In this document: piece by piece, positions 11,627 to 62,213 of the stretch
How positions within the stretch are numbered: the first letter of the stretch is position 1
Layout: every line of letters begins with the position of its first letter
DNA from: an uncultured delta proteobacterium
GTDB lineage: Bacteria > Desulfobacterota > Deferrisomatia > Deferrisomatales > JACRMM01
Direction: 5' to 3'
NCBI GenBank assembly: GCA_963707045.1
Contig: CAVPOV010000014.1
Coordinates: 62,643 to 126,642, forward strand
Length of the DNA: 64,000 nt
Notes under the pieces: generated by a model
Told to the model about the DNA's origin: nothing
Database searches by the model: none
The model's input: only the letters and a program-made list of their open reading frames with translations
Translations under genes and position numbers: made by a program

Positions 11627-11709
11627 TGAAGTCGCCTTCGTAGCGGGAGAGGGCCAGAGGAAGAGCCTACAACCCCTGGCACGACGGGGTTCCGGCTTCC
11701 CCTCAAGGA

Positions 11710-12339
11710 TCAGAACCGATCGGCGTCGGCCGTTCGGCCCTTCTCGGCACGGCGACGGCTCAGCGCCTCGGCCTCCCGTGCGCCCTTGTCCTTTAGGGTG
11801 AGGTCCACGTAGTGAAGTTGGAGCGCCGAGCCCGGCCCAATCTGGACGAGCACGCGGTCCGTGGGGCTGGGCGACCACTGCTTCGCCCCGCGGTACAGGA
11901 GGAGCTCCCCCAGACTCCCCGGGATGGGCCAGTCGAAACCTCCGTACTTCCGGGAGAGGATCTGCACGAGGTTGGCCTCCCGCAGTTCCCGATCGTCTTT
12001 CGTGCCCGAGCTGGAGTTCCAGGCCACGTCCACGCTGTGCAGCTCCCGGGTGTACGGTGTCAGCTTCAGCGTAACCCGGGCCGGCCATTCCAGCAGGCGC
12101 GTCGCGTAGCTGTACGACGAATGCTTCCCGACGTCCTTCGTGGCAACCTGGTGGTTGTAGCGCTTGTTGATGTGGACATGCGGACTCGGTGCGATGGGAA
12201 GATCGTGGTCTCGGGCCGTCGCAAGAATCTGAGACAGCCCCATCCCGGAGCGCCAGACGTCGAACTCGAACGCGGCGGAGGTGGAGGGACGGCCAAACGC
12301 GAGCAGGGCGCCGAGGAGGACCAGGGCTGTACGAACCAT
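11710..12339 (-). CDS. secreted hypothetical protein
   Basis: The start MVRTALVLLGALLAFGRPSTSAA looks like a signal peptide. The ORF is 210 codons and no family was recognised. Confidence 0.55.
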   Translation of the reverse strand: MVRTALVLLGALLAFGRPSTSAAFEFDVWRSGMGLSQILATARDHDLPIAPSPHVHINKRYNHQVATKDVGKHSSYSYATRLLEWPARVTLKLTPYTRELHSVDVAWNSSSGTKDDRELREANLVQILSRKYGGFDWPIPGSLGELLLYRGAKQWSPSPTDRVLVQIGPGSALQLHYVDLTLKDKGAREAEALSRRRAEKGRTADADRF

Positions 12340-12470: not shown

Positions 12471-15400
12471 CTAACCCGCCACCACCTTCGCCTCCTGGAA
12501 CAACTCGGCCGGCATCGCGGACCGCAGCCGCCACACGATCCGCATAGGCCGCTCGCCCTCGTGGCGAACGTAGGAGACCGGCCCGAGGAACCGATAGGGC
12601 ATCGTCTCCCCTCGGCCGTCCTTCTTCCTCTGCCGCACGAACAGGAGGACGTGGCTGCCCTCCCTCTCGTGGTTCACGTAGCGGCGGCCCGTGGGCGAGT
12701 CGGCCCGGGTCACGCTCTGCGACTCCCAGTGGAACTCCGTGGGAGAGATCGGGTAGTCGTCGTAGCGCGTCGTCGCCGAGTACTCCTTTTCGGACTTCTC
12801 GAGGGTCACGAAGAGGAGGTCCGACCGGGTGGCCTGGTCGTAGTGGACCCCCTGCTGCATCTGTAGAAGCCGTCCATTGGCCGTGACGCCGAACGCGGCC
12901 AGGATCTCGTAGAGGGCGTAGGTGCCGTGCACCTGGAGCGGGACGGGCTGGCCGAGGTCGAGGGGGTAGACGGCCGAGCGGCTCCGGTCGGCCAGCACCG
13001 CCAGAAGCTCCCGAAACTCGGCGCGCATCGCCGGCTCGGCCCAGAGCTCGGCCAGCGCGTCCCCGAGCTCCGCGACCGATCGCGCGCGGTGTCCCAGGGC
13101 GGCGAAGAGCATGAGCTGGAGGCGGCCTTCGAGGGTCTCGGGGGGCCTCGGCTCGGGCGGCTGGTCGCCGGAGACCCACTCCTGCCAGGTGCCCAGGCGC
13201 AGGGGATCGTCCAGGTGGAGCAGCCGGCCGAACGCCTTGGCCAGCCCTCCCTCGTTCGGTCCCGCGGCGGCCTCGGGGAGCCCGGCCGCCCTGCGGAGCG
13301 CGGACCACGAGTTGGTCGCCGCGGACCGCGGGTAGATCTCCTCCAGCTCCACGCCGGCCTGAGACAGGAAGGCGGCGAGGTCCACGTCCCCGAGGCTCCG
13401 CAGGTCCTCCACCAGGGCCGCCCGGCCGAGCGCGGAGCGCGTCCTTCACGTTGGCCAGCACGGCCTCGCCGGGACAGACGGTCGAGTTGCAGGGAGCAGC
13501 CCGGGCGGGAGGAACGGGAACTCGGCCTCCACCTGCTTCGCGAAGTCCCGCCGCGTGCCGCCGAGGATTGCCCGGTACTTGAGGTCGAAGCGGAACTGGC
13601 GGTGCGCGTTGCCGATGAAGTCGAGGACCGAGAAGCGACCCCTTGCCCTGCGGCCAGCCGGAGCCCGCGCCCCAGCTGCTGGAGGAAGACCGTGGCGCTC
13701 TCCGTCGGGCGCAGGAAGAGGACCGTGTCGACCTCGGGCAGGTCCACGCCCTCGTTGAAGAGATCGACGGCGAAGACCACGCTGGACCCGCCGCTCGCGC
13801 AGGTCGCCGGAGGGCCGTTCCGGCGCTCGTCGCCCGGCGTGCCGCCGTGAATCGCCACGGCGGCCACGCCGGCCTCGGCGAAGCGGCGCGCCATGAAGAC
13901 CGCGTGGTCCACACCCGCGCAGAAACCCGAGCGCCCGCATCCTGGCCGGGTCGGCGACCCGGGCCTTCACCTCCTGGAGGATCCGCGCGGCGCGGCTGTG
14001 GTGGCCGGTGTAGAGCCTCTCGAGCTCCGCCAGATCGTACCGGCCCCGCGTCCAGCGATGCCCGAGAGGTCGGTCCCGTCGTGGACGCCGAAGTAGTGGA
14101 ACGGGCACAGGAGCCCCTGGTCCAGCGCCTTCCAGAGCCGCAGGTCCGCCGCCACGCGGCCTTCGAACCACTGGAGCACGTCCTGGCCGTCGGTGCGTTC
14201 CGGGGTGGCGGTCAGCCCCAGGAGCACCCTGCGGCGGAGAGCGTCCGCAGGAGCGCGTCGTAGCTCGGCGCCGCGGCGTGGTGGAACTCGTCGACGATCA
14301 CCACCTCGTAGGCGTCGGGTCGGAGCCCTGCGAGGCGCTCGGCGCGCAGCGACTGGATCGACGCGAAGACGTGGCGGCCCGCCTCGGGCCGATGCGCCGT
14401 CCACCAGGAGCTCGCCGAAGCTGCCGTCACCCAGGACCACCTGGAAGACCGCCCGGCTCTGCTCGAGGATCTCCTTCCGGTGGGCCACGAAGAGGAGGCT
14501 CGCCTCGCCCCGCTCGCGCCGCAGGCGCGCGTAGTCGAAGGCCGCGACCCAGGTCTTGCCGGTGCCGGTCGCGGCCACGACCAGGTTCTTCCAGTGCCCG
14601 CCGCTGCCGCTCGGCGTCGAGCCGCTCGAGGATCTCCTGCTGGTGCGCCTTGGGCGCCACCTCGAGTCGGCAGCTCGATGGCCGCGGTGCGCCCCTCCCC
14701 CGTCTGCCGCCGGAGCGCCCGTTCGAGCCGGTCGCCGTCCGCCTCGGGGTCGTAGGGCTGAAACTCCGCCTCGGCCCAGTACTGGTCGAACACGGCGCGG
14801 AACCGCGCCACGATGCCCGAGTTGTCGGTCTCGCTCGCGCGGACGTTCCACTCGAGCCCGTCCACGCAGGGCCGCACGGGAGAGGTTCGACGAGCCGATG
14901 TAGGCGGTGGAGAAGCCCCTCGGTCGCGGTGGAAGAGCCAGGCCTTGGCGTGAAGTCGGGTCTGATCGGTCTCGTAGGACACCTTGATCCGCGCCCCGAG
15001 GCGGCACAGCTCGTCGAGGGCCCGGCGCTGGGTGGCGCCGGTGTAGACCGTGGTGAGGACCCGAAGCTCTCGGCCCGAGCGCAGGAACTCCGCCAAAGCG
15101 TCCCGGATCACCAGGAACCCGGTCCAGCGGACGAAAGCGCAGAGGAGGTCGACCCGCTGGGCGCTCGCCAGCTCGCTCGCCACCGCGCGGCCGATCCCCT
15201 GGTCCCGGTGGCCGTTCACGAGGAGGACGCTCGACCGAAGCGGGATCACCGGACGCGCCGGTGGCTGGTTCGCACCCAGGTCCCCGGACGGCCTCACCAA
15301 GTGGAGCAGCAGGCGGCCGGGCTCGTCGACCGCGTCGCCCTCGACCACCGGGTAGGCCGTGGAGTCCTTCAGGAAGTCGAGCAGTCGGTTGGCGAGTCCG

Positions 15401-15660
15401 ATCTGCGCCGCTACCTGTTCCGTGCCCTCGCCTGGGAGGGAGCGAAGCGCGCCGAAGAGATGCCGCCCCACGTAGCGGGCCAGGACCTCGGGCGCCCCCT
15501 CGCCGTCGAGATCGCGACGGCCCGCGCCCCAGCCGCGGGCTTCGAGGCGGACCAGCGCCTCCCCGAGCTCTCGGGTCACGAGGTCCTCGTAGAGCCCCGG
15601 CAGAAGCTCGCGGCCACCGTGCCCCTCTCCGGCGCCCCCCCGCCGTCTGCCGTCACCCAC
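12471..15660 (-). pseudogene. PLD-family (NgoFVII-like) nuclease, SF2 DEAD/DEAH helicase and DUF3427 fusion, with multiple frame changes in the helicase core
   Basis: The N-terminal 245 aa are clean and carry the HKD motif RLHAKAWLFH plus YIGSSNLSRAAL. Helicase motifs VVAATGTGKTWVAA, VIVDEFHH and LGLTATPER lie scattered over three frames (about 13.4-14.9 kb). The C-terminal 313 aa are clean and end ...HWESQSVTRADSPTGRRYVNH...LLFVR...YRFLGPV (DUF3427 pattern). Confidence 0.8.
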
Positions 15661-16063
15661 CCTGCGCCGCCTTCTGCTGAGAAGAAGTCTCTTGCAGAAA
15701 CGCCACCGTGGGCAGGTCCGCGGGCGCGAACTCGTACGCCCCCATCTCCTCCGGCCGCACCCACCGCACCTCGTCGTGGTCCCGCAGCTCGAATTCCCCG
15801 GCGACGTGAACGGCCCGGTAGCTCAGGAGCTCGATCGAAAGGTGGGGGTAGTGGTGGACGTGCGACACCAGAAACTCGCCGATCTCAGCCCCGATGCCGA
15901 ACTCCTCGTGAAGCTCCCGAGCCAGGCAGTCCCGTGGGTCCTCCCCGTCCTCGATCTTGCCCCCGGGGAACTCCCACAGACCCGCGAGGCGGTGGTGTTC
16001 CCTCCGCTTGGCGATCAAGATTCTCCCGGCCCTCTCCATGACGGCGGCAGTGACTCGGATCAA
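15653..16063 (-). CDS. NUDIX hydrolase (MutT/8-oxo-dGTP diphosphatase family)
   Basis: GLWEFPGGKIEDGEDPRDCLARELHEEFGI is a complete Nudix box GX5EX7REUXEEXGU. The 3' end overlaps the start of the downstream PLD-helicase gene by 8 nt. Confidence 0.85.
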   Translation of the reverse strand: MIRVTAAVMERAGRILIAKRREHHRLAGLWEFPGGKIEDGEDPRDCLARELHEEFGIGAEIGEFLVSHVHHYPHLSIELLSYRAVHVAGEFELRDHDEVRWVRPEEMGAYEFAPADLPTVAFLQETSSQQKAAQGG

Positions 16064-16138
16064 TGGTTCTCCTCCAAGACCGATGGGCCAACGCTGAGTC
16101 CAGAGACGTTCGCGCAGAAGTGCGTTGCGCCTTCCCTC

Positions 16139-17119
16139 TCACCGCCTGCGAAACACCCTGTCGCGGTGCCACCGCACCGCCTCCGGATCCGGCCGCCAAG
16201 CGCCCTCCGCTGGCCCGATCAGGAGCCGCCCGACCAAAGCACCCAGGTGGGCCGGCACGTTGTCGCGTCCGCCCAGTTGGGGCGAGGCGAGGATCACGTA
16301 CACCGCCGTCAGGCTGAGGAGCCCCTCGTCGAAGGTCCAGTGGCAGAGGCGGCAGAGAGCCAGACCGTTTCGGGGGTCGTCGTTCTTCGACTCGCTCCAG
16401 GGGACGATGTGGGCCGCCTCGACGACGGTGTGGCCGTCGGGCGTGGTCATTCGGATGCCGCAGAAGCCGCACCGGTGCTCATAAGCCGTGACCACGGCCC
16501 GCCGGAAGCCCTGGTCCCGGGCCGGTGGCGGCACGGTCTCGGCCGCGAGGCTCGCGCCGCCGAAGGGCTCGGATCGGGCGGCCTCGAGGAGGTCGTGACT
16601 GTAGCGGTAGGCCTGGACGTTGACGGCGGCTTGGGCGAGCAGGGCGGGCCGAACCGCCGGGGCGAAGTAGTGTTCCACCAGCGCGGCGCGCAGCTTTTCG
16701 CGGCTCGCCGGGTCCAGGAGCAGCGCGAAGAGCTCTTCATCGAGCCGGGCGCCGAGGACAATCCCTTGGAGCTGCGGGACCGAACTCACGGTCTTCGTGG
16801 CTTGGAGGACCGCCTCCTTGCCCGGCACGGCGACGAGATGCCAGAAACCGCCGCTGCGAAGGTGGAAGAAGGGGTAGGCCAGGTTCCCCATCCGATCGGC
16901 GGGCATGACCTTGGACCAGTAGAGGGAGAAGAGTTCGCCAAGGTCGCGGGTGAGCTCCACGAGGTTCGCCGCCAGCGTCCCCTCGGCAATCAGGTCCATC
17001 ACCGACAGGAGCAGGAGCGGCTTGTGAGGTGCCCGCTCCAGGGTCGCGGCGGGAAACTTGCCTCTGCCCCCGTCCGTGCGCAGCCGCGTGAAGCGGCGGA
17101 CGTACTCCGGGAGGCTCAC
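16139..17119 (-). CDS. HNH endonuclease (HNH_2 type), putative type IV restriction enzyme with an N-terminal DNA-sensing domain
   Basis: The GTG at 17119 overlaps the HIT stop (GTGA). The C-terminus CGFCGIRM..EAAHIVPWSES..NGLALCRLCHWTFDEG is an HNH motif. The N-terminal PHKPLLLLSVMDLI and AYPFFHLRSGGFWHL resemble motifs I recall from ScoMcrA-type sulfur-binding (phosphorothioate-sensing) domains. That resemblance is unverified. Confidence 0.7.
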   Translation of the reverse strand: MSLPEYVRRFTRLRTDGGRGKFPAATLERAPHKPLLLLSVMDLIAEGTLAANLVELTRDLGELFSLYWSKVMPADRMGNLAYPFFHLRSGGFWHLVAVPGKEAVLQATKTVSSVPQLQGIVLGARLDEELFALLLDPASREKLRAALVEHYFAPAVRPALLAQAAVNVQAYRYSHDLLEAARSEPFGGASLAAETVPPPARDQGFRRAVVTAYEHRCGFCGIRMTTPDGHTVVEAAHIVPWSESKNDDPRNGLALCRLCHWTFDEGLLSLTAVYVILASPQLGGRDNVPAHLGALVGRLLIGPAEGAWRPDPEAVRWHRDRVFRRR

Positions 17120-17610
17120 CTCGCTCGCCCCTTCGGCTTCGGTTCGGTGACGAGCGACGCGCTGCCCAGGCCGGGGATGAACCCGGGATCCCGGTAATTG
17201 CCCCGCGCCGGGATGACGAACCGCACCCCGCCCGTGGGGTCGTCCACGTCGCCGTCGAACCGGGGGATCAGGTGCAGGTGCAAGTGGGACACGGTCTGGC
17301 CCGCGGCCGGGCCGGCGTTGAACCCGCCGTTGTAGCCGTCGGGCTTCAGTTCCGCGTCGAGTCGAGCCTTGACCCGGTCGGCGAGCTCCAGGATGGCGAG
17401 CTGTTCTTCCCGGCTGGCGTCGAACCAGGTGGGCACGTGGCGGCGGGGAACGATGAGGGTGTGGCCGGGGTTGACCGGGAAGCCGTCGGGAAAGGCCGCG
17501 GCCAGGGCGTTCTCGGCGAGGATCTCCCGGCCGCGAAGGTCGCAGAACGGGCACTTGCCGGCGGGGCTCACCGCCCGCGGGCTCCGGACCCCGGGCGGCG
17601 AAACGGCCAC
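17116..17610 (-). CDS. HIT-family (histidine triad) nucleotide hydrolase/transferase
   Basis: TVSHLHLHLIPR is the HxHxHxx histidine triad, and CPFC lies near the N-terminus. The exact start is uncertain (GTG 17610 or GTG 17571). Confidence 0.85.
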   Translation of the reverse strand: MAVSPPGVRSPRAVSPAGKCPFCDLRGREILAENALAAAFPDGFPVNPGHTLIVPRRHVPTWFDASREEQLAILELADRVKARLDAELKPDGYNGGFNAGPAAGQTVSHLHLHLIPRFDGDVDDPTGGVRFVIPARGNYRDPGFIPGLGSASLVTEPKPKGRAR

Positions 17611-17781
17611 CCCGCCGTTTCGGCGAAGTGGCCGCGTCCGTTGCCAGCCGTGCTTTCGAGCTTCCGCATCCCTGCCCCTCCCCGAGTCGATCGACCTCCC
17701 GTATCTACGCCGAACGGCGGGGAAGGGTCAACGGAGAATCCGGTCCGCCGTGGTCCCTGCCGATCCGCAGACAGAAGCCGA

Positions 17782-18430: not shown

Positions 18431-18823
18431 TCACACGGCGTCGTCCAGCAGCCGCGCCACGCGGCCCAAGAGTTGGCGCAGTTGGCCGACGGCCACTTCG
18501 CGGTCCAGCGGCGGTTCCTCCTCTTCGAGTGCCTGGTAACGGAACTGAACCCCGAAGGGGTTGTACTCCACCAGGTCCCATAGCGCTTCGACTTCGACGC
18601 CGTGTCCCTGGAGCACCGTGATGAGGGTGGCGAGATTGTGGGTCAGGGGGTATTCCTGGCCGAGCGCCGCGATCCAGGCCTTCAAGGCCTTCCCAGCGGC
18701 CTGCTGCGCGTGGAATCCGAACACCTCATCCGCGAACACCTCCGCGTCGCTCATTCCGCCCAGTGCCCGCAGGTCCTTCTCGGCCATCGCGAGCAGGGCC
18801 GCTGCATTCTCTCGCTCGCTCAT
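18431..18823 (-). CDS. HEPN domain protein (pair 1)
   Basis: MSERENAAALLAMAEKDLRAL...FGFHAQQAAGKALKAWI...NPFGVQFRYQ is the typical small HEPN protein partnered with a minimal nucleotidyltransferase. Confidence 0.8.
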   Translation of the reverse strand: MSERENAAALLAMAEKDLRALGGMSDAEVFADEVFGFHAQQAAGKALKAWIAALGQEYPLTHNLATLITVLQGHGVEVEALWDLVEYNPFGVQFRYQALEEEEPPLDREVAVGQLRQLLGRVARLLDDAV

Positions 18824-19148
18824 AGAGGACCCTGCCTTCCCGAAGCGCATGCGCCACCACGTGATTTCGGGTGTTTGCCCAGTGCTCGGCTTCTTCGGCG
18901 GTGTAGACGAGGATGTCCTGGGAAACCGGGAACCGCGCGAGGGCGCGCGACAGCCTAGCCATCTCCCGCCGCCGGCTGCGGCCCGGGCCGAAGGGCTTGT
19001 CCTCGATGACGAGGAAATCCACGTCCGACGCCGGCCCAGCCGCGCCTCTGGCGTGAGACCCGAAGAGGACGATCTTCCGAGGTTTCGCCTCACGGACGAG
19101 GATCTCGGTCATTTCCTCGACGAGCCTCTCGACGGCCTGAGCGGTCAT
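18726..19148 (-). CDS. minimal nucleotidyltransferase (MNT/NTase-fold, pair 1)
   Basis: KIVLFGSHARGAAGPASDVDFLV matches the NTase motif GS-x9-12-DxD. The ORF tail overlaps the HEPN gene by 98 nt in another frame. Confidence 0.8.
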   Translation of the reverse strand: MTAQAVERLVEEMTEILVREAKPRKIVLFGSHARGAAGPASDVDFLVIEDKPFGPGRSRRREMARLSRALARFPVSQDILVYTAEEAEHWANTRNHVVAHALREGRVLYERARECSGPARDGREGPAGTGRNERRGGVRG

Positions 19149-19445: not shown

Positions 19446-22400
19446 TCACGGTGAGGCGAGCTTGCGGCCGCAGTTGGGGCAGGTCTCGGCGCCCGGGCGG
19501 AGGTGCCCGAGGCAGTGGGAGCAGTGGGAGGATACGGTCCGGCGCACGCCGGCCACCCCGATGACCGGGCCGGGGCGCTTCTTCGGTTGGCTCCCGGCGG
19601 CGGGTCGGGTCTCGGCGTGCCCGGCGCTGTGGCCCCGGCCCGCGCCGGCGAAGGCGGCGAAGGCGGGCGCCCCTGCCCGGGCGTAGAAGTCGAAGCCGGC
19701 GCCTTCCTCCGTCCAGTCCTCCTCCATCAGGTATTCGCCGCTGTCCTCTGCCTCGGTTTCGGAGCGCCGGACTCGTGCCACCCACGCGGGGGCGCCTTCG
19801 TCCAACCGGGCCTGCACGCGGGAACGGAGGCCGACGAGCTCCTCCTGGAGCCCGGGGGTCTTCGCCCGCAGCTCGTTCAGGGCCCGCTCCAGCGTCTCCG
19901 GGGGCGGGACGCCGTCGACCAAGGCGTCGGGACCCAGGGCGGCGCAGACGGAGATCCGTCGGTCGGCCTTGGCGAGCCGGGCCTTCTGCTCCGCCCAGCG
20001 CCCCTCCTCTCCGGACAGCGCCGCGCGTTCCTCCTCCCACGCGGACCGGCGCTCCTGCAGCCGGGCTTCGCTCTCCCGGAGGCCGGCCTCCTCGGCCGCG
20101 AGCTTGGACCGTTCCTCGCCGAGGCGGAGCTTCTCTTCCGCGATCCGTCCCGCCTCCCGCTCCATGTCCGAGGACTCCTGGGCGAGGCGCCGGGCCCACG
20201 CATCCAGGTCGGCGTTCTCCCGGGCGAGGGCGCCGTCTTCGGCGGCGAGCCGCTCCACCTCGGCGGCCAGGGCACGGTGCGCCCGCTCCCACGCCTCCAC
20301 CTCCCCGGCCAGGTGCGCCTCCTGCCCGGCGAGGTCGCCGGCCGCCGCGGCCAGGTCGTCTCGGATCGCCGCCCAATCCGTCTGGGCTCGGGCCAGCTCC
20401 GCGGCCTCCCGGTGGTGCTCCTGCTCCGCCTCCCGCAGCGAGCCCGCCCGCAGCTCGAGCCGCGCGTCGTCCTCCTCGATCCGGGCCTGCTCGGCCGCGA
20501 TCCGCTGGCGGTGGTCGGCCAGGGTCGCGGCGGCTCTGGCGAGCTGCTCCCGCCCGTCCGCCACGCGGGCCCTGCCCTTCTCGATCCGGTCCCGCTCTTC
20601 GGCCAGCCGGGCTTCGAACCGCTCCAGCCGGGCGGCCTCCGCCCGCCGTTCCTCCCGGACGACTCCCAGGCGGGCCTCGTCTTCCGCGAGGCGGGCCAGC
20701 TCCCCGTCCAGGCCTTCCAGCTCCGCGGCCAGCGCGGCCCGCTTCGCGCCGAGGCCGGCCCTCGACTCCTCGAGGAGGGCCTGGCTTCGCTGCCACGCCG
20801 CCCGCTGCGCCGCGAGGTCGGCGTCCGCGGCGGCCAACCCCTCTTCCCACGTCGCCAGCCGGAGCCTCTCGGCGGCGATGGCTTCCTCCTCCGCCGCGCG
20901 CTCGGAGCGGACGGTGGCCGCGAACGCTTCGTCCTCCCGCAGCGCCTGCTCCCGGGCCGCCAGCGCGTCCGCGTCCGCCCGCAGCCCGGTCTCCGCCGCG
21001 GTCAGCGCGGCCCGCTCGGCCCGGAGGTCCGCCTGCTCCGCCGCCAACGCGTCCCGCGCCCCCCCGGCGGCTTCCCGTTCCGATCCCCGCTTCCGCTCCT
21101 CCTTGAGAGATGCCGCTGTTTCGTCGAGACCTCTCTTCTCCGTCGCGAAGGAGCGCCGCTCCTGCTGCAGGCTTTTCCTCTGGCCCTGCAGGTCGCGCTC
21201 CTTTCCCAGGAGCGCCTCCCGCGCCGCGGCCGACTCGGCCGCTCTCCGGGCAAGCGTCTCCCGCTCTTCCCCGAGCCGGGCCTGCTCCCCTTCCCGCACC
21301 GCCGGGTCCTGCGCCTCGCTCCCCCCGGCGAGGGCCCTCTCCTCCTTGGAGAGCTTCTTCCGCGCCCTCCCGAGCGCCCCCTTCGCTCCGGAGAGCTTCT
21401 TCTTCTCCTGGGCGAGCACTTCCGCCTCGCCTTCGCACGCCTGGAGCGCCCGGGTGTTCGCCCGCCTTCGCCGCGCGAGGTCCTTGCGGGCCGCCGCCAG
21501 TTCCCTCTCGGCCCGATCCAGCTCCTCGGGCGTCCGGACCGGAGCGGCGGCCAGGGCTTCGAGCTCGCCCCGGCGGCGGGCGAGGGCGGCCGACTGCTCC
21601 TCCCAGCGACGCATCCTCTCCGCCAGGGCGTCCTCCGCCTGCCGCAGCGCCTCCCGCTCCCCGGCCAGGAGCTCTCGGCTCTCGGCCAGCGCCGTCTCCC
21701 GCGCTTCCACCCGGGCCGCCCAGGTCCTCGCCCCGGCTTCCCGGGCGGCGAGGCCGGCTTTATCCCTCTCGAGCCGCCCGCGGTCGGCGGCGAGCTCTTC
21801 TCCGCGGCGCTGGTTGTCGCGGCCCCGCTCGTCCAGGTCTGCTTCCTCCGCGGCGGCCCGGCTGGCTTCCGCTTCGAGCCCTGCCCGCGCCTCGACGCGG
21901 CAGGCCCGCCGCCCCTCGACCTCCTCCCGGGCGGATGCCAGGGCCCCACTCTCGTCCGCCAGGGCGCGCTCGGCTTCGCGGTGAGCGGCCAGGTCCCGCT
22001 CGAACTCGGCCCGGTCCGCGGACAGTGCCCCTTCCCGCTCCCGAAGGGCGGCCTCCCACTCCTTCACCTTCTGCACGCCCGCGTCGTACTTCTCGGTGTG
22101 ACCGGCCGTGGCGTGCCGGCGCTCGGCGAGTCGGTCCCGTTCCCCCGCCAGCCGGGCCCTCGCCTCCTCCAGCGCGGCCGCCTGCGCCGCCAGGTCCCGG
22201 CTCCGTCGCCCGTGGGCCTCGCGGCGGCCCGCGAGCGCCGCCCCGCTCTCGGAATGCTCCTTCTCCCGCCGACCGACGACCCGTCTCCCGTCCCCCAGCT
22301 CTTCCTGCCGGCGTCCCAGGACCCCGCGGGCGGCGGTCAGCTTCTCCTGTCGCACCGCCGCCGTCTGCCGGCCCTCGACCTGCGCGGCCGCCCCGCGCGC

Positions 22401-23360
22401 GTGGGCTGCCCGCCGCTGGGCCAGGGTCTCTCCCGCCTCGACCCACTGCTGCCTGCGGAGGACGATCTGTCTCCCGTCGTGGACGAGCGCCGCCTCGCGG
22501 GCGCCGCACCTCCGCCCCCGCTCGTCGAGCACCGCCCTCACGTTGCCGAGCCGCTCCTCCTGCCGGACGAGCTCGGCCTCCTGCTGCTCCAGCCGCTGCC
22601 GATGTCCCGCCAGCCGGGCCCCTTCCTCTGCGAGGACCTGCTCGCCCGTGACGACCTCGGTCAGGAGCTCGATCCGTCTCCGGTGGAGGTCGAACCGGTG
22701 ACGGGCTTCGGGGAACGCGCGGCCGACCGAGAGCTTCCATCGGTTGCTCGCCCGCTCGGCGGCGGATTTCTCGACGGCGTCGAAGTTCTCGTCGTCGGCC
22801 CACCGGACGGCGAAGCCGTTGACGCTCCACCCGAGGGGAGTGGTCTCCGCGGTGAAGACCTTCTCCAGCGCCCGCTCGAGATAGGCCGCTCCCTCGCCGA
22901 AGTCGGCGTCCGCCCACTGCTGGAAGGGCGCTTCCAGACGCTTCGACAACCGGTGCGCCAGGTCGTCCGCCGCCAGCGCGGTGTGGCCTGCCAGCATCTC
23001 CACGAGGCCGCCGAGGTGGAAGGGCTTGCACGAGAGGGTGGCCGAGAGCTCGCAGTACCTGCGAGCGCCCGCGCCGTCCTCGCTTTCCAGGTCCAGGTGG
23101 AGGCGAAAGGGATCGGCGACGACGAGGAGCACGTCCGGCGGGGTGGCCCCGGCCAGCAGGCGCCGAACCCACGTGAGCCCGGCGCCGGTGCGCTCGGTGC
23201 CCCGCGTCAGCACGTCGAGGCACTTGCCCTCGTGGTAGACGCAGAGCTGGTCGCCGACCCCCACCGTGAACCCGTCCTCGAGCAGCGCGACGAGCTCCAC
23301 GGGGGCGAGGCTCTTAGCGATGGTCTGGTTTCCGTAGATCTTCCAGTTCACGATCGACAC
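19446..23360 (-). CDS. 1304-aa protein with an N-terminal globular domain (possibly SPFH/Band7-like), about 950 aa of A/E/R/L-rich coiled coil, and a C-terminal zinc ribbon
   Basis: A single uninterrupted ORF. The start is chosen at GTG 23360, 5 nt after AGGTGG. The N-terminus reads VSIVNWKIYGNQTIAKSLAPVELVALLEDGFTVGVGDQLCVYHEG... The long heptad-like region reads ...LAAEQADLRAERAALTAAETGLRADADALAAREQAL... The C-terminus is CSHCLGHLRPGAETCPNCGRKL. Confidence 0.85.
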   Translation of the reverse strand: MSIVNWKIYGNQTIAKSLAPVELVALLEDGFTVGVGDQLCVYHEGKCLDVLTRGTERTGAGLTWVRRLLAGATPPDVLLVVADPFRLHLDLESEDGAGARRYCELSATLSCKPFHLGGLVEMLAGHTALAADDLAHRLSKRLEAPFQQWADADFGEGAAYLERALEKVFTAETTPLGWSVNGFAVRWADDENFDAVEKSAAERASNRWKLSVGRAFPEARHRFDLHRRRIELLTEVVTGEQVLAEEGARLAGHRQRLEQQEAELVRQEERLGNVRAVLDERGRRCGAREAALVHDGRQIVLRRQQWVEAGETLAQRRAAHARGAAAQVEGRQTAAVRQEKLTAARGVLGRRQEELGDGRRVVGRREKEHSESGAALAGRREAHGRRSRDLAAQAAALEEARARLAGERDRLAERRHATAGHTEKYDAGVQKVKEWEAALREREGALSADRAEFERDLAAHREAERALADESGALASAREEVEGRRACRVEARAGLEAEASRAAAEEADLDERGRDNQRRGEELAADRGRLERDKAGLAAREAGARTWAARVEARETALAESRELLAGEREALRQAEDALAERMRRWEEQSAALARRRGELEALAAAPVRTPEELDRAERELAAARKDLARRRRANTRALQACEGEAEVLAQEKKKLSGAKGALGRARKKLSKEERALAGGSEAQDPAVREGEQARLGEERETLARRAAESAAAREALLGKERDLQGQRKSLQQERRSFATEKRGLDETAASLKEERKRGSEREAAGGARDALAAEQADLRAERAALTAAETGLRADADALAAREQALREDEAFAATVRSERAAEEEAIAAERLRLATWEEGLAAADADLAAQRAAWQRSQALLEESRAGLGAKRAALAAELEGLDGELARLAEDEARLGVVREERRAEAARLERFEARLAEERDRIEKGRARVADGREQLARAAATLADHRQRIAAEQARIEEDDARLELRAGSLREAEQEHHREAAELARAQTDWAAIRDDLAAAAGDLAGQEAHLAGEVEAWERAHRALAAEVERLAAEDGALARENADLDAWARRLAQESSDMEREAGRIAEEKLRLGEERSKLAAEEAGLRESEARLQERRSAWEEERAALSGEEGRWAEQKARLAKADRRISVCAALGPDALVDGVPPPETLERALNELRAKTPGLQEELVGLRSRVQARLDEGAPAWVARVRRSETEAEDSGEYLMEEDWTEEGAGFDFYARAGAPAFAAFAGAGRGHSAGHAETRPAAGSQPKKRPGPVIGVAGVRRTVSSHCSHCLGHLRPGAETCPNCGRKLASP

Positions 23361-23429
23361 GATGCCACCTGCGCGTCCGGTTCCAACTCCTCGCGCGGTC
23401 ACGCCCACGGATACGCCGGACGGACCGCC

Positions 23430-23915
23430 CTACCTCTTATCGGCCGTTCGGGGCGCGGCTCGAAGCGAAATCAGAGCGCGAGGCGGGGGCCTGGACTGCC
23501 GGGGTCGGGGAGCAGGGCTAGTGGCTGGGGGCTCTGGGGACCGGATTTCTAGCAACGAACCGTTGTCCAGGCGACCGGGGGGCAGGCGCCTGGGTTCTGG
23601 GGCAGGATGGCCGAGGAAGTCGTAACGGAGCAACACCGCGAACGGGTTCAGTTCCTGGATGGCGGCCGTGTCGGGCGGCGGCGCGATCCGATGGTCGTCG
23701 AGGAGTTCGAGCAGGAGCTCGAGGTCGTGCACCCTCCGGAATTCCACGCCATTGGACACGAGCACGGCCTTCAGGCACTTCTCGATCGCCTGCTGGGCGT
23801 GAAAGCCGATGACCTCGTCGGCGATCTCCCGGTCGGGGACCAGCTTCTCGAAGGCCCGGAGGTCGCGGTCCGCCAGGGACAGGAACCGGCGCGCCAGGTC
23901 AGCGGCCTGCTTCAT
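23430..23915 (-). CDS. HEPN domain protein (pair 2) with a Pro-rich C-terminal tail
   Basis: [22 protein letters not shown]...IGFHAQQAIEKCLKAVL...NPFAVLLRYD is a paralogue of 18431-18823. The tail from about 23590 to 23430 is low-complexity and may not be native. Confidence 0.75.
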   Translation of the reverse strand: MKQAADLARRFLSLADRDLRAFEKLVPDREIADEVIGFHAQQAIEKCLKAVLVSNGVEFRRVHDLELLLELLDDHRIAPPPDTAAIQELNPFAVLLRYDFLGHPAPEPRRLPPGRLDNGSLLEIRSPEPPATSPAPRPRQSRPPPRALISLRAAPRTADKR

Positions 23916-24221
23916 AGAGCACCTTGCCCTCCCGAAGCGCCCAGTACAGGGCCGTTCCCGGCAGGTGACCCCAGTCGGCGGCCTCCTCCTCGGAGCAGAC
24001 GAGGAGGTCCACCGCGATGCCGAGCCGGCCCACGGCGCGCCGCAGGCGAGCCATTTCCCGGACCGCGGAGTCCACCTCCCGCTCGACGACGAGAAGATCG
24101 AGATCCGAGTTCGGGCCGGCGGTGCCCTCCGCATACGACCCGAACAGCACCACCCGCACGGGGTCTGCCGCCTCCACCAGCCGTTGCGTCACCTCTCGGA
24201 TCCGCGCCTCGCTGATAACCG

Positions 24222-24225
<4 letters not shown>
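23899..24225 (-). CDS. minimal nucleotidyltransferase (pair 2)
   Basis: [24 protein letters not shown] is the NTase motif. The homologous N-terminal helix begins at a CTG (24225) that overlaps the gyrB stop (CTGA). The first canonical start is GTG 24192. Confidence 0.7.
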
Positions 24226-26673
<2,448 letters not shown>

Positions 26674-26684
<11 letters not shown>

Positions 26685-27759
26685 GGAGGATCTGTCCCTT
26701 CTGGATGCGGAAATCCGCTCGTTCTTCGCCCCGGGGCAGGGGAACCGCCTCGGGGTCCGTCACCGCCACCAGGACCTGACCGGACCACCGGGCGAGGAAG
26801 TCGCCGAGGTAGCCGAGCCTCCGGCTGTCGAGCTCCGAGCCGGGGTCGTCGAGGAGGAAGACGGGCTCCTCCCCGAGTTGGTCGCGCCCCCAGAGCAGGA
26901 GGCCGAGCTTGAGGCTCAGCGCCAGGGTCCGCAGCTGGCCCTGGGACGCGTGGCTCTCCACCGGCCGACCGCCGATGCGCACGCGGAGCGCGTCGCGGTG
27001 GGGCCCCACCGTGGTGAAGCCCAGCCGCCGGTCGGTCTCGCGGGCCTCGGCCAGGGCTTCCCGAAAAGCTTCGAGGTCCCCCGGATCCCCCGGCCCGGAC
27101 GGATCGTAGGCCAGCCGGACCTCGTCGTTTCCCCCCGAGATGTCGCCGTGGATGGCGGCCACGGCCGGCGCCACCCCCGCAAGGGTCGCCCCCCGCGCCG
27201 CGCGCACCCGTATGGCGGCGCCGCACAGCGTCTCGTCCCACACGTCGAGACTGGAGGGGTCGCCCCGGAGCGCGAAGTTCCTCTGCCGCAACGCCCTAGT
27301 ATACTCCCGAAGGGCCCCCAGGTGGGAGGCGTCGCGGACGAAGGACGCCCGGTCCAGGTAGCGGCGGCGCTGGTCCTGGCTCCCCCTGGCGAGGTCGAGG
27401 TCCGCCGGGCTGAACAGGACGGTCTGGAAGTGGGCGAGATACTGGGCCGTGCTCTCGGGGACCTTGTCGTCGACCCAGGCGGTGCGCCCTTGCCCGTCGA
27501 GGGCGACCCGGAGGTCCACCTCTCCCTCTCGGCCGACCACCCGCCCCTTCAGGAGGGCGTTCTCTCCCCCGGCCTCGATCAGGTCCCGCGGTCGCCGCGT
27601 GCGGAAGCTCTGCAGGTTCGAGAGCAGGTGGACCGCCTCGATGAGGTTCGTCTTTCCCTGGGCGTTCTCCCCGTGGAAGACCGAGAAGCGGCGCGCCGTC
27701 TCGATCTGGGCCTCCTGCAGGTTGCGGAACCCCCGGACTCCGATCCGCAGGAGCCTCAT
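26674..27759 (-). CDS. recF: DNA replication and repair protein RecF
   Basis: [15 protein letters not shown]...[15 protein letters not shown] carries the Walker A. The SMC-like signature [15 protein letters not shown] and the Walker [12 protein letters not shown] are present. The gene sits between dnaN and gyrB. Confidence 0.95.
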
Positions 27760-27766
27760 CGCCTCG

Positions 27767-28885
27767 TCAGTCGATCCTCATGGGCATCACGACCCACAGG
27801 GAACGGGGATCGGAGGAGGTGCGGATGAGGCACGGCGAAAGTGGGTCGTTGAGGGACAGGAGGATCTCCGCGTCATCCACGGCCCGCAGCACCTCGATGA
27901 CGTAGGAGGCGTTGAAGGCCACCCGGAACCCCGGCCCCTCGTACTCCGCCTCCATCTCCTCCCGGGCGTCGCCGAAGCGGGGGTCGGCGGAGGTGAGGAT
28001 CACCGAGCCCTCCTTGGCCTCCAGGATCACGCTGCGGCTCTCCTGGTCGCTGAGCAGGGAGACGCGGCGGAGGCCGTCGAGGAACTCCTGGCGGGAGATC
28101 CGGATCCCCTCCGGGGCCTCGGCCGGGATGACCTGCTCGTAGTTGGGGAAGGCCCCGTCGATGAGGAGGACCGAGAGGAGCGCCCCCTCGAGGCGGGCGA
28201 AGAGCCTCCCCTCGGCCGTGGCCACCTCGAACTCCCCGGAGCCGTCGTCGAGCAGGGACTTCAGCTCGGACAGCGCCTTCTTCGGCACGATCACTCCCTT
28301 GGCGAAGGCCTTCACCGCGGTCTCCAGGGGGCGGTCCACCAGGCCGAGCCGGTGGCCGTCCGTCGCGACCATACGCAGGCAGGTCGTTCCCCCGGGTTCC
28401 TTGTGCGTCGTGACGTGCACCCCGCACAGGGTGAGGCGCGATTCGTCGCCGGAAGCGGCGAAGAGGGTCCGGTCGAGCATCTCCCGGAAGACCCGGGTCT
28501 CCATCTTCCCGAAGGCGTCCGGCGCGTCCGGCAGGGTCGGGAACTCCTCGGGAGACCCGCCCGGGATGTGGAACACGCTCTTCTCCGCCGACACCGTGAT
28601 TCGGAGGTTCTCCCGGACCTCGAGGTCCACCGCGGTGCGCGGCATCTCCCGGACGATCTCGTGGAGCTTTCGTCCCGGGACGGTGATGCTGCCCGGCTGG
28701 AGCACCTCGCACGCCACGTCCTGGCCCAGGCTCACCCGGAGGTCGGTGGCGGAGACCCGCAGGATCCCCTTGTCCGCTTCCAGGAGGACGCTCTCGAGGA
28801 CGGGACGGGTGCTCTTGCGTTCGAGGACCGACTGGGCCCGAGACAAGACCTCCGAGAAGGCGTCCTGGGGGATCCGGATCTTCAT
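27767..28885 (-). CDS. dnaN: DNA polymerase III beta sliding clamp
   Basis: 372-aa clean ORF starting MKIRIPQDAFSEVLSRAQSVLERKSTRPVLESVLLEA. It has the conserved position immediately downstream of dnaA. Confidence 0.95.
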   Translation of the reverse strand: MKIRIPQDAFSEVLSRAQSVLERKSTRPVLESVLLEADKGILRVSATDLRVSLGQDVACEVLQPGSITVPGRKLHEIVREMPRTAVDLEVRENLRITVSAEKSVFHIPGGSPEEFPTLPDAPDAFGKMETRVFREMLDRTLFAASGDESRLTLCGVHVTTHKEPGGTTCLRMVATDGHRLGLVDRPLETAVKAFAKGVIVPKKALSELKSLLDDGSGEFEVATAEGRLFARLEGALLSVLLIDGAFPNYEQVIPAEAPEGIRISRQEFLDGLRRVSLLSDQESRSVILEAKEGSVILTSADPRFGDAREEMEAEYEGPGFRVAFNASYVIEVLRAVDDAEILLSLNDPLSPCLIRTSSDPRSLWVVMPMRID

Positions 28886-29104
28886 GAGTCCACACCTCCT
28901 ACGGTTTACGATTTTATAAAGAAAGAGAATTCAAGATCGTAGTAGGGCCTGTGGATGCTGGGGATAAGTGGTCGCGACCGACGGTCCCCGGCGCCGGGAG
29001 CCTGTGGGCGAATCTGTGGACAAGTGTCGAGTTCTCCACAGGCCCGAGAGGGGCGGAATCTGTCCACAGGAAGGCCACAGGACCGTCCACAGGATGTCGA
29101 CAGC
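28886..29104. other. candidate oriC: DnaA-box cluster plus an AT-rich unwinding element in the dnaA-dnaN spacer
   Basis: The AT-rich stretch TTTACGATTTTATAAAGAAAGAGAATTCAAGATCGTAGTA (28905-28944) stands out in an otherwise about 70% GC context. Boxes: TGGGGATAA (28959-67), TGTGGACAA (29015-23), TTCTCCACA (29032-40), CTGTCCACA (29060-68) and CCGTCCACA (29083-91), against the consensus TTATCCACA. Confidence 0.6.
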
Positions 29105-30445
29105 TCATGGGCCGAGGGAGGCGCGGATCGCGTCGACGTGGCTTCGCAGTTCGGCATCGGTCGGAAGGGCGTCGGCGATCTTGGAGCACGCGTACATGAC
29201 CGTGCTGTGGTCCCGGCCGCCGATCTTCGTGCCGATCTCCGGGAAGGAGCAGGCCGTGAGGTCGCGGGCCAGGTACATGGCGATCTGGCGCGGCAGGGCG
29301 ATGGCCCGGGTGCGGCGCTTCCCGCGCAGATCGACCACGGAGACCTGGAAGTGGGAGCACACGGCCTTGACCACCCGGTCCACCGTGATCTCCCGGGCGG
29401 TGTCGCGGATCAGGTCCTTGAGGACGCCTCGGGCCAGTTCGATGGTGATCGGCGCGTGGGTCAGGCTGGCGAAGGCGCCGATGCGGACCAGGGCCCCCTC
29501 GAGCTCGCGGATGTTCGAGGTGAAGTGCTTGGCGAGGAAGTGGGCCACGTCGTCGGGCAGGGGTACGGACTCCACCTGGGCCTTCTTCTGGAGAATCGCG
29601 ACCTTGGTCTCCATGTCCGGGGCCTGGATGTCGGCGATGAGCCCCCACTCGAAGCGGGAGCGGAGGCGGTCTTCGAGCCCCGGGATGTCCTTCGGGAACT
29701 TGTCGCTCGTGACGACGATGTTCCGGTGGCCCTCGTACAGGGCGTTGAAGGTGTGGAAGAACTCCTCCTGGGTCCTCTCCTTGCCGGAGATGAACTGGAT
29801 GTCGTCCATCAGGAGGACGTCCATCCGGCGGTACTTCTCGCGGAACTCCGGCATCTTCTTGTTCGCGAGCGCCTGGATGAGCTCGTTCATGAAGCTCTCG
29901 CTGTGCACGTAGCACACGCGCATGTCCGGGTAGTTGGCGAGCTTGAAGTTGCCGATGGCGTTGAGGAGGTGGGTCTTCCCGAGCCCGACGCCGCCGTAGA
30001 TGAACAGGGGGTTGTACGTGCGCGGTGACTTCTCCGCCACGGCGTGACTCGCCGCGTGGGCGAACTGGTTGGAGGAACCGACCACGAAGGCGTCGAAGGT
30101 GTACTTGGGGTTGAGCCCGATGCGCTTGGCCCGGCTCTGCCAGTCGGGAGTGGCCGAAGGCCTGGCCTTCGGGGACGAGGCCGTACGGAGGTAGGCCTTC
30201 TCCTCGGGTTGGACGACGAAGTCGATCTCGATCTCGCGGCCGGCCTGGCGCACCAGGGAGGCCCGGATCAGGGAGACGTAGTCGTGCTCCTGGAGCCAGT
30301 CGATGAAGAACTTGTTCGGGACCTCGACCGTGGCGCGGCCGTCGGTGATCTGGACGGGATGGAGGGGGGCCACCCAGGTGGCGAAGGCGTGGGCGGGCAA
30401 CGCGGCTTCGAGGTCGGAGAGGACGTCCTTCCAGAGGTTGTCCAT
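29105..30445 (-). CDS. dnaA: chromosomal replication initiator protein DnaA
   Basis: 446-aa clean ORF. The AAA+ Walker A is IYGGVGLGKTHLLNAIG. The C-terminal DNA-binding domain reads RQIAMYLARDLT..SFPEIGTKIGGRDHSTVMYACSKI. Confidence 0.97.
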   Translation of the reverse strand: MDNLWKDVLSDLEAALPAHAFATWVAPLHPVQITDGRATVEVPNKFFIDWLQEHDYVSLIRASLVRQAGREIEIDFVVQPEEKAYLRTASSPKARPSATPDWQSRAKRIGLNPKYTFDAFVVGSSNQFAHAASHAVAEKSPRTYNPLFIYGGVGLGKTHLLNAIGNFKLANYPDMRVCYVHSESFMNELIQALANKKMPEFREKYRRMDVLLMDDIQFISGKERTQEEFFHTFNALYEGHRNIVVTSDKFPKDIPGLEDRLRSRFEWGLIADIQAPDMETKVAILQKKAQVESVPLPDDVAHFLAKHFTSNIRELEGALVRIGAFASLTHAPITIELARGVLKDLIRDTAREITVDRVVKAVCSHFQVSVVDLRGKRRTRAIALPRQIAMYLARDLTACSFPEIGTKIGGRDHSTVMYACSKIADALPTDAELRSHVDAIRASLGP

Positions 30446-30472: not shown

Positions 30473-30504
30473 TTACCCACAAGCTTGTCCACACCTGTGG
30501 AAAA
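30473..30504. promoter_or_regulatory. three DnaA boxes upstream of dnaA
   Basis: TTACCCACA (30473-81), TTGTCCACA (30485-93) and TGTGGAAAA (30496-504) are each 8/9 to the consensus. They lie 28-60 bp upstream of the dnaA start. Confidence 0.55.
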
Positions 30505-30665
30505 GCTCGATTGCGAAGTCCGTTTCGCTACTTCCTTCGCTTTTGGAGAACTCTGGGAGGGGGTCGGCGGAGGCCCGGAGGCCGACGCCGGGGACGGAGA
30601 CTAGCAGAGGGGATTCCGGGGAGGCAAGGGGTTTGTTCCCGCTCCCGGTGGAGGGCAGCGACCCC

Positions 30666-32048: not shown

Positions 32049-32144
32049 GGAGGGCAGCGACCCCATTGACCGCCCGCTTCGGGCCGTTCTATCGTCGTCG
32101 GACCGCCGTTCCGGCGGGATCGGGCGCGAAGAGGAGCCGAGGCC

Positions 32145-37312: not shown

Positions 37313-37388
<76 letters not shown>

Positions 37389-62103: not shown

Positions 62104-62213
62104 CCTCTTATCGAGAGTGGCGGAGGGACCAGGCCCTGCGAAGCCACAGCAACCGGCCCGAGAGGGCGAGGTGCTAATTCCTGCGGGGCGCGACGCCCCG
62201 AGAGATGAGAAGG
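62104..62213 (+). promoter_or_regulatory. SAM-I (S-box) riboswitch upstream of metX
   Basis: CCTCTTATCGAGAGTGGCGGAGGGACCAGGCCCTGCGAAGCCACAGCAACCGG...AGGTGCTAATTCCTGC...GAGAGATGAGAAGG matches the conserved S-box core (CTTATC-AGAG-GG-GGAGGGA-GGCCC-GAAGCC-CAGCAACC...GGTGCTAA-TCC...AGA-GATAAGA). Confidence 0.85.

Follow-up and report, generated by a model that had tools for sequence, protein, structure and literature searches.

A predicted SPFH-fold protein with a helical heptad stalk of about 926 residues and a putative C-terminal zinc ribbon, encoded next to dnaA-dnaN-recF-gyrB in an uncultured delta proteobacterium

SPFH proteins are found across every domain of life and, to our knowledge, most of their bacterial members have no known function. 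All those that have been structurally characterised are domed homo- or hetero-oligomeric rings with an SPFH base, a wall of parallel CC1 helices and a C-terminal cap; their subunit number correlates with CC1 length, and cryo-electron microscopy shows that the size of the cages goes with how long the helix following the SPFH domain is (PMC12624060). Flotillin builds its wall from 44 parallel helices of 186 amino acids (aa) each, arranged in a single layer, and the cage can contact membranes at both of its ends (PMC11260169). The vault is a soluble SPFH cage, so membrane binding is not obligatory (PMC12624060). Archaeal ESCRT-type loci are reported to encode proteins composed of an SPFH domain, a coiled coil and a zinc ribbon, and members of PF13421 such as YdjI recruit PspA (PMC10936438). 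Here, we describe a gene at 19446-23360 on the minus strand of a 64,000-nucleotide (nt) stretch of DNA from an uncultured delta proteobacterium (contig CAVPOV010000014.1 of assembly GCA_963707045.1, positions 62,643 to 126,642), hereafter the window. Its product, a protein of 1304 aa, combines these three modules around a stalk of unusual length.

The window protein belongs to a three-module family: an N-terminal SPFH domain, a helical stalk of variable length and a C-terminal head made of an acidic-aromatic motif and a four-cysteine ribbon. SPFH scaffolds with a coiled coil and a zinc ribbon are already known as a kind. What is new is an unnamed lineage outside the family libraries, a stalk about five times as long as that of flotillin and a distinctive heptad with a single leucine; the family comes to us from metagenome-assembled sequence only. 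By analogy with the solved SPFH proteins we give about an even chance to the window protein being a cytoplasmic, self-assembling SPFH scaffold, whose stalk would act as a spacer that keeps the zinc-ribbon head at a distance from the SPFH base. Our confidence is high for its identity and architecture, and modest for its mode of assembly. A scaffold or ruler had already been suggested in an earlier note on this DNA and stays the best reading of what the protein may do.

The open reading frame (ORF) is intact. It runs on the minus strand from a GTG start codon (23360-23358) to a stop (19448-19446), in agreement with the coordinates, start and length of the earlier note. Its GC content by codon position (GC1/2/3 = 0.82/0.54/0.91) follows a coding pattern, in a genome of about 71% GC. 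A Shine-Dalgarno sequence, AGGTGG (23365-23370, minus strand), lies 4 nt before the GTG (AGGTGG-CATC-GTG); both elements had been recognised before, but with a spacer of 5 nt. The start of the protein aligns with that of its homologue P0001 (MSIVNWKIYG and xPISEWKIYG, respectively). It is also found in the only close relative that a genome scan returned, a truncated gene on a contig (L001) of a metagenome-assembled genome labelled Thermodesulfobacteriota, whose DNA is 85-90% identical to the window over aligned blocks: the GTG is the same there, and AGGGGG occupies the equivalent position of the Shine-Dalgarno sequence. The L001 contig ends 824 nt into its copy of the gene. Over the first 274 codons, the two copies share 92% of nucleotides and 88% of amino acids, with no indels and a ratio of nonsynonymous to synonymous substitution rates (dN/dS) of 0.47.

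The gene had been described as the longest clean ORF of the window. It is clean, but an antisense frame of 1349 aa (19503-23552, plus strand) exceeds it and misleads length-based gene calling. Because GC1 (0.90) is higher than GC3 (0.82) in that frame and its translation is rich in Leu, Gly, Pro and Arg, we reject coding on the antisense strand and regard the frame as a shadow; GC3 exceeds GC1 on the minus strand only. The earlier note had also named a fusion artefact of collapsed repeats as a possible pitfall. The ORF contains no recent tandem or dispersed DNA repeats, only low-identity periodicities of 21 and 42 nt. Self-BLAST of the stalk yields no matches and a Smith-Waterman self-scan gives an internal similarity of 117, in marginal excess of the values in register-preserving shuffles (at most 99). 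A recent internal duplication of the stalk is rejected on these grounds, and since DNA repeats are missing and the internal similarity barely rises above shuffles, the ORF is not a collapsed-repeat artefact. The 1304-aa ORF is a real gene.

Residues 1 to about 217 (22710-23360, minus strand) are predicted to adopt the SPFH/Band-7 fold. We modelled residues 1-250 with AlphaFold2 (AF2), using a 13-sequence alignment of family N-domains (A1). The model is globular, with a predicted local distance difference test score (pLDDT) of 85.7 and a predicted template modelling score of 0.79, as expected for the first 230 or so residues from the earlier reading. In a Foldseek comparison with the PDB, the check that had been advised for this domain, each of the top 48 matches is to an SPFH protein, among prohibitin, HflK/C, flotillin, stomatin, vault and QmcA, at a probability of 1.00. 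The best is prohibitin 8rrh (E 5.9e-8); matches of the core domain include 4fvg (TM score 0.64, root-mean-square deviation 3.9 Å). Structural matches in the viral library BFVD are Band 7/SPFH proteins as well. A long CC1-type helix comes directly after the domain: helices 193-213 and 215-249 are part of the confident model, and the latter extends to about residue 332 in the model of the stalk.

At the level of profiles the family is faint. A domain-only Pfam scan finds weak PF01145 (Band_7) matches in 4 of 13 members (best E 1.8e-5), and no other Pfam family matches more than one of them. The scores of the relatives lie between 13 and 20 bits (P0013, 20.4; P0004, 16.0; P0012, 13.4), below the gathering threshold of 23.6 bits, and the window protein has no PF01145 match at E ≤ 1. 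The domain had been tentatively associated with SPFH/Band7-like COG4260 proteins, of which the first part stands. The second is not supported: PF13421 (Band_7_1/COG4260) matches none of the 13 family N-domains at E ≤ 10, nor the full window protein, in a search where very weak matches are possibly concealed by HMMER filters. A literature search on COG4260 returned nothing relevant.

We find no transmembrane (TM) segment in the window protein, whose highest 19-residue Kyte-Doolittle mean (1.28) falls within a β-strand of the N-domain. A signal peptide is missing as well, and the N-terminus has neither a TM helix nor a hydrophobic hairpin nor a lipid anchor, as the protein opens straight into the domain with MSIVNWKIYG.

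The helical heptad stalk follows, comprising about 926 aa (residues 218-1143; 19932-22709, minus strand). It is supported by a 3.5-aa periodicity, by a map of the heptad register and by the helices of a single-sequence AF2 model, and is made mostly of Ala (20.6%), Arg (14.2%), Glu (14.1%) and Leu (10.6%). The power of its hydrophobic periodicity at 3.5 residues is 8.27, about six times the best of 200 shuffles (1.32), and the register stays near-constant across hundreds of residues. Each heptad has a single hydrophobic position, filled by Leu, Ile, Val or Trp in 73-94% of cases. Relative to it, positions +3 and +4 are hydrophobic in only 0-13% of cases and mostly charged, and positions +1, +5, +6 and sometimes +2 are rich in Ala. 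The resulting helix has a narrow Leu stripe, an Ala-rich side roughly opposite and Glu and Arg on the flanks; Glu at +3 and Arg at +6 could form a ladder of i+3/i+4 salt bridges. With one hydrophobic position per heptad and charges at +3 and +4, a canonical two-stranded coiled coil with an a/d core is rejected. Such a single-Leu heptad would be compatible with helices that touch neighbours on two sides.

The stalk had previously been described as about 950 aa of uninterrupted coiled coil. The Ala/Glu/Arg/Leu-rich composition and the heptad signal hold, but the word uninterrupted is overstated, since the stalk contains three prolines (607, 611 and 686) and four to six Gly-rich or modelled breaks; it is also somewhat shorter and has the single-hydrophobic heptad described above. 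The AF2 model of residues 190-1304 is of low confidence (pLDDT 56) and serves for helix boundaries only. It comprises nine stalk helices, at 217-332, 336-346, 380-502, 511-604, 611-676, 696-741, 769-879, 887-985 and 996-1128, with predicted breaks at 347-379, 605-610, 677-695 and 742-768 and short ones at 880-886 and 986-995. The first break, residues 347-379 (22224-22322, minus strand, like all that follow), is Gly-rich, non-helical in the model and weak in heptad score. The second, residues 605-611 (AAPVRTP; 21528-21548), is placed by its prolines and the model. In the mid-stalk break, residues 677-695 (LAGGSEAQDPAVREGEQAR; 21276-21332), the register changes, and Pro content, register map and model coincide; the last, residues 742-768 (21057-21137), appears in both the register map and the model. 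Fully extended, 926 residues of helix would measure about 139 nm.

The stalk gives way to a conserved C-terminal module (residues 1144-1304; 19449-19931, minus strand), delimited by alignment with the homologues P0001-P0005. Besides short helices, it comprises a G-x-PP and an acidic-aromatic motif, a Gly/Pro linker and the ribbon. The acidic-aromatic motif, GEYLMEEDWTEEGAGFDFY (residues 1208-1226; 19683-19739, minus strand), follows the family consensus (F/Y)L...W(D/S/T)EE..F.F. The protein ends in a conserved, predicted zinc ribbon, CSHC-x10-CPNC, with cysteines 1280, 1283, 1294 and 1297 (19470-19523, minus strand); it had been seen before, though with a spacing of x9. All four cysteines and the flanking R/G residues are kept in all six clade members (the window protein and P0001-P0005), whose consensus is S-x-R-C-x2-C-x10-C-x2-C-G-R. 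Matches of the C-terminus to the Pfam families Zn_ribbon_3, Zn_Ribbon_1 and DZR are sub-threshold (E 0.009-0.055).

An exhaustive phmmer search against 1.84 billion representative proteins gives the size of the family: 14 representatives. The ten that we checked stand for clusters of one or two sequences, and the only two names among them are 'hypothetical protein', with no functional name. Word-indexed searches gave no homologue with the N-domain alone or with a trimmed 12-sequence profile, and re-found only P0008 with the 13-sequence profile. Exact-sequence look-ups of the protein in a contig collection had no match, nor had two metagenome contig scans for the family. The A1 alignment is too divergent for pattern scans.

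The six aligned clade members share an identical order of modules and the conserved C-terminal module, and differ in the length of the stalk between the conserved ends: about 0-60 residues in P0002-P0005 (P0005 totals 443 aa), about 260 in P0001 (616 aa in total, with an N-domain 40% identical to that of the window protein) and about 926 in the window protein, the longest-stalked of the family. A series of about 0, 260 and 926 residues between conserved ends is what a test of the ruler hypothesis needs. The family also adds a TM-less SPFH lineage that sequence-family libraries have overlooked. Three of the short-stalked members, P0002, P0003 and P0004 (loci L004 and L005), carry an extra N-terminal region before the matched SPFH domain, which is followed by the short stalk and the ribbon. 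This region looks like a second copy of an SPFH-like domain; in P0004 it has a weak Band_7 match at residues 91-180.

Flotillin, HflK-HflC, prohibitin, stomatin and QmcA (PF01145) have the same N-domain fold as the window protein in Foldseek (E 6e-8 to 1e-5), and in all of them, as here, a long helix comes straight after the SPFH domain and leads to a separate, cap-like module at the C-terminus. PF01145 is weakly matched by four distant relatives of the window protein, which itself lies below every Pfam and NCBIfam threshold. The canonical proteins are membrane-anchored, whereas the window protein has no TM helix, hairpin or lipidation signal. Its stalk of about 926 aa contrasts with the 186-aa wall helix of flotillin, and its strict heptad with a wall that has none (PMC11260169). 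It terminates in a zinc ribbon, where canonical SPFH proteins have a β-barrel or a helical cap. The major vault protein is soluble and has a long helix after its SPFH-fold domain, as the window protein does (Foldseek E 4e-6; 9mxv, 9r86, 4v60); it has no zinc ribbon and possesses a long N-terminal array of repeat domains. The vault is known to form a cage, whereas oligomerisation of the window protein would follow by analogy.

The plan of SPFH domain, coiled coil and zinc ribbon, cytoplasmic and TM-less, is that of the archaeal 'Meth_adaptin' SPFH proteins of ESCRT loci (Makarova et al. 2024, PMC10936438) and of PF13421/COG4260 proteins, e.g. YdjI of B. subtilis. Large AAA ATPases beside distant members of the present family recall the archaeal Vps4 context (PMC10936438). 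The window protein shares with PF13421/COG4260 proteins the C-terminal zinc ribbon, but no member of its family matches their profile. Unlike in the archaeal and YdjI systems, none of the neighbours of the window gene is PspA/ESCRT-III, Vps4 or YdjG/H-like, and the encoded stalk exceeds those of the relatives several-fold in length. SMC, Rad50, MukB and JetC are comparable in the length of their coiled coils. Here the profile matches are confined to the coiled coil and far below cut-off (TIGR02168, 34.7 bits versus a cut-off of 567; PADLOC JetC, E 1.6e-4); the Walker A/B head, hinge and zinc hook are missing, with an SPFH domain at the N-terminus instead. Neither a Walker A motif ([AG]xxxxGK[ST]), whose absence had been stated before, nor any GK[ST] occurs anywhere in the 1304 aa, and an SMC-like ATPase is rejected.

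From these likenesses we propose a mechanism. The SPFH domains would self-associate into a ring or an array, probably at the inner face of the cytoplasmic membrane, which they may contact through the conserved N-terminal aromatics W6 and Y9 instead of a TM anchor. The stalks would then stand parallel, side by side, with the Leu stripe of one helix against the Ala-rich face of the next and the ladder of Glu and Arg stabilising their packing. At the far end, the zinc-ribbon heads would converge, and either close the assembly or bind a partner or a second surface. The stalk would thus be a spacer or a ruler that determines how high the assembly stands or how far it reaches; full extension would give at most about 140 nm, and folding at the Gly/Pro breaks less. 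The toxin-antitoxin (TA) genes that flank the gene would be unrelated passengers of an origin-proximal variable region.

Several observations weigh against this scaffold. Pfam, NCBIfam and PADLOC scans have no match in residues 1-250, leaving the SPFH thresholds of Pfam and NCBIfam unreached. Because no SPFH protein was matched when profiles were searched against the sequences of the PDB, there is no sequence-level link to the solved structures and the relation is visible at the level of the fold only. Membrane association is an assumption, because the protein has no membrane anchor and the vault is a soluble SPFH assembly. The model of the stalk is of low confidence, and parallel and antiparallel packing are indistinguishable from sequence; the single-Leu heptad with its ladder would also fit a dimeric or a largely monomeric rod. 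The analogy with flotillin is imperfect, its wall having no heptads (PMC11260169). Finally, within the family itself the heptad signal is strong in the window protein only: P0001 shows it marginally, and the distant clade lacks it.

A bolder version of the scaffold, which we consider unlikely, holds that the stalk of about 926 aa would build the wall, or form a spoke, of a far larger SPFH assembly than any solved: a cytoplasmic cage or tube of vault scale or larger, or a membrane-anchored ruler of more than 100 nm that would hold the ribbon head deep in the cytoplasm. The published relation between CC1 length and subunit number, y = 0.1782x + 10.22 (PMC12624060), extrapolates to about 33 subunits for the first 130-aa helix and about 175 for the whole stalk. 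If such a giant assembly exists, the protein would offer a naturally occurring, extreme test of whether cage size is set by stalk length. More generally, an outlier of this kind makes the rule for SPFH assemblies testable, and so regular a single-Leu heptad could be of use to those who design long helical assemblies.

On the minus strand, the genes succeed one another as dnaA (29105-30445), dnaN (27767-28885), recF (26674-27759), gyrB (24222-26684), a first NTase/HEPN pair (NTase, about 23899-24219; HEPN, 23430 to about 23912), the big gene, a second NTase/HEPN pair (NTase, about 18810-19121; HEPN, 18431 to about 18970) and then defence-type genes. Six DnaA-box-like sites (TTATCCACA, at most one mismatch), which are all that the window contains, lie in the dnaA-dnaN spacer (28959-29040) and upstream of dnaA (30473-30504), in clusters about 5.6-7 kb from the big gene; as many were reached in none of 100 shuffles. 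The locus is the region of the chromosomal origin, to which a variable stretch rich in defence genes is joined. The two NTase/HEPN pairs on either side of the gene, correctly located in the earlier note, are paralogous (47% and 39% identity to each other) and on the same strand as the gene; the NTase matches the PADLOC candidate PDC-S09. The L001 contig has the window's order, dnaA-dnaN-recF-gyrB-[TA]-big gene. There, the slot between gyrB and the big gene (L001 9071-9687) holds a HepT-like PF01934 cassette, of another TA family than that of the window, so the TA modules are exchangeable passengers at a fixed site.

The gyrB gene of the window is split into at least four frame segments, at a local GC content of 64%; the neighbouring dnaA, dnaN and recF are intact. 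Compared with the intact gyrB of L001 (817 aa), it has 22 inserted and 13 deleted bases in 28 gaps, mostly of a single base, and a GC-to-AT substitution bias (104 versus 42). It may be either a decaying pseudogene or a stretch of locally poor consensus sequence. A type IV methyl-directed restriction enzyme (12471-15660, minus strand) is frameshifted like gyrB, into three ORFs at 14212-15660, 13446-14171 and 12471-13412; it corresponds to PADLOC mREase_IV, a model of 945 positions, with ResIII and DUF3427 domains. Further defence-type genes downstream of the big gene encode NERD, NUDIX, HNH endonuclease and HIT proteins (10739-12088, 15653-16138, 16139-17554 and 17116-17727, respectively, all on the minus strand). 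The NUDIX protein matches the PADLOC candidate PDC-S07 (E 2e-45), and the HIT protein has a weak ThsC-like match; the mechanical ORFs of HNH and HIT overlap in different frames.

Among the alternatives to the parallel scaffold, one would have the stalk fold back on itself in an intramolecular, antiparallel manner, as an SMC/Rad50-like arm without the ATPase: a rod of about 60-70 nm with the SPFH domain and the ribbon at the same end. The break at 677-695, with its change of register, does sit at the midpoint (about 680) of the stalk, a Pro/Gly break (Pro 347, ...SYEAPEVEVKGVGD...) also interrupts the stalk of P0001 (about 215-483) close to its middle, and the only Foldseek matches of the stalk model are generic helical hairpins (Vipp1/PspA, BAR), none of them significant (E ≥ 0.05). 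We nonetheless find the hairpin improbable. Parallel helices lead away from the base in all solved SPFH assemblies (PMC12624060, PMC11260169); nothing mirrors the weak-heptad stretch at 300-335 at the same distance beyond an apex placed at about 683; the arms would be unequal if the break of P0001 is homologous to the second one here, at 605-611; and AF2 monomer models tend to fold back long helices anyway, this one at a pLDDT of 56. As for the long ORF being an artefact, whether a chance frame in DNA of 77% GC, a misassembly or a decaying gene, the longer antisense frame, the frameshift-ridden gyrB and type IV restriction enzyme and the break of the L001 contig within the gene all speak for it. 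It is close to refuted by the excess of GC3 over GC1 on the minus strand only, both ends of the ORF matching homologue modules in frame, the confident model of the N-domain, the dN/dS value and the scarcity of internal repetition.

The surroundings of the gene invite two other explanations. The earlier note placed the gene in a defence island, and the protein could serve an anti-phage or TA system as one of its components, its sensor or its scaffold, together with the NTase/HEPN pairs on its flanks and the nearby restriction-type genes. The paralogous pairs stand immediately on either side of it, on its own strand, the NTase being a PADLOC candidate match, and the type IV restriction enzyme, HNH, HIT, NUDIX and NERD genes follow downstream. 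We hold such a role to be quite improbable. PADLOC-DB v2 defence models have no match to the big protein outside low-complexity regions, JetC being coiled-coil noise, and L001 keeps the big gene with another TA family in the slot. The homologues are scattered: P0001 and P0015 (three contigs) neighbour PilZ, Ysc84 and GGDEF genes, P0003 neighbours BrkB, HAD and EAL/HDOD, and the P0005 locus has no recognisable neighbour. In all-against-all BLAST, eight homologue loci in six independent contexts (L002/L007/L008, L003, L005, L006, L009 and L010) share no neighbour with the window, and their called neighbours have no defence or TA domain. The defence inference fails on these loci, the very outcome that had been named beforehand as speaking against it, and the gene appears to stand alone. 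Moreover, neither 72,556 plasmids nor 50,697 phage records contain a match to the family, and a literature search for SPFH-based defence systems of such a kind found none. Adjacency to defence genes beside a replication origin is not evidence for a role in defence. Alternatively, the protein could tether the chromosome close to its origin, with the ribbon on DNA near oriC and the SPFH end on the membrane or at the pole, so that the long coiled coil would connect origin and envelope. The gene comes directly after dnaA-dnaN-recF-gyrB, all the DnaA-box-like sites of the window are within several kilobases, its position is conserved in L001, and zinc ribbons can bind nucleic acids (PMC3581485). 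A tether is, however, very unlikely: the closest full-length homologue lies amid PilZ, Ysc84 and GGDEF genes, away from dnaA, and the origin-proximal position is common to only two genomes, about 90% identical in aligned DNA. The C-terminal module is also acidic (net charge -2, isoelectric point 6.3), with no recognised DNA-binding domain in a Pfam scan. Both the defence and the tether explanations are disfavoured because no context is conserved, and the self-assembling scaffold stays the reading that we prefer.

Members of the distant clade have a context of their own. P0007, P0008 and P0009 lie in a conserved gene cluster (L003 1743-9918, L009 3357-7951 and L010 1444-9837), whose partners have no homologues in the window. 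Three uncharacterised proteins are common to L003 (438/577/346 aa) and L010 (340/572/328 aa), with E between 1e-17 and 5e-35; a protein of about 195 aa is common to L003 and L009, and a large AAA (or kinase+AAA) ATPase to L009 and L010. The cluster may be an uncharacterised multi-gene system.

Two RNA elements, neither of them near the big gene, are the only Rfam and ARAGORN matches in the window: a SAM riboswitch (RF00162) at 62105-62211 on the plus strand, with 94.5 bits, and a tRNA-Phe(GAA) at 37313-37388 on the minus strand. Just upstream of dnaA and beside the DnaA-box-like sites at 30473-30504, a segment of about 1.4 kb (30641-32056), absent from L001, is an insertion of an insertion sequence. 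It contains an ORF of 392 aa (30792-31970, minus strand) with helix-turn-helix domains of the transposase type (HTH_29/28/23/32).

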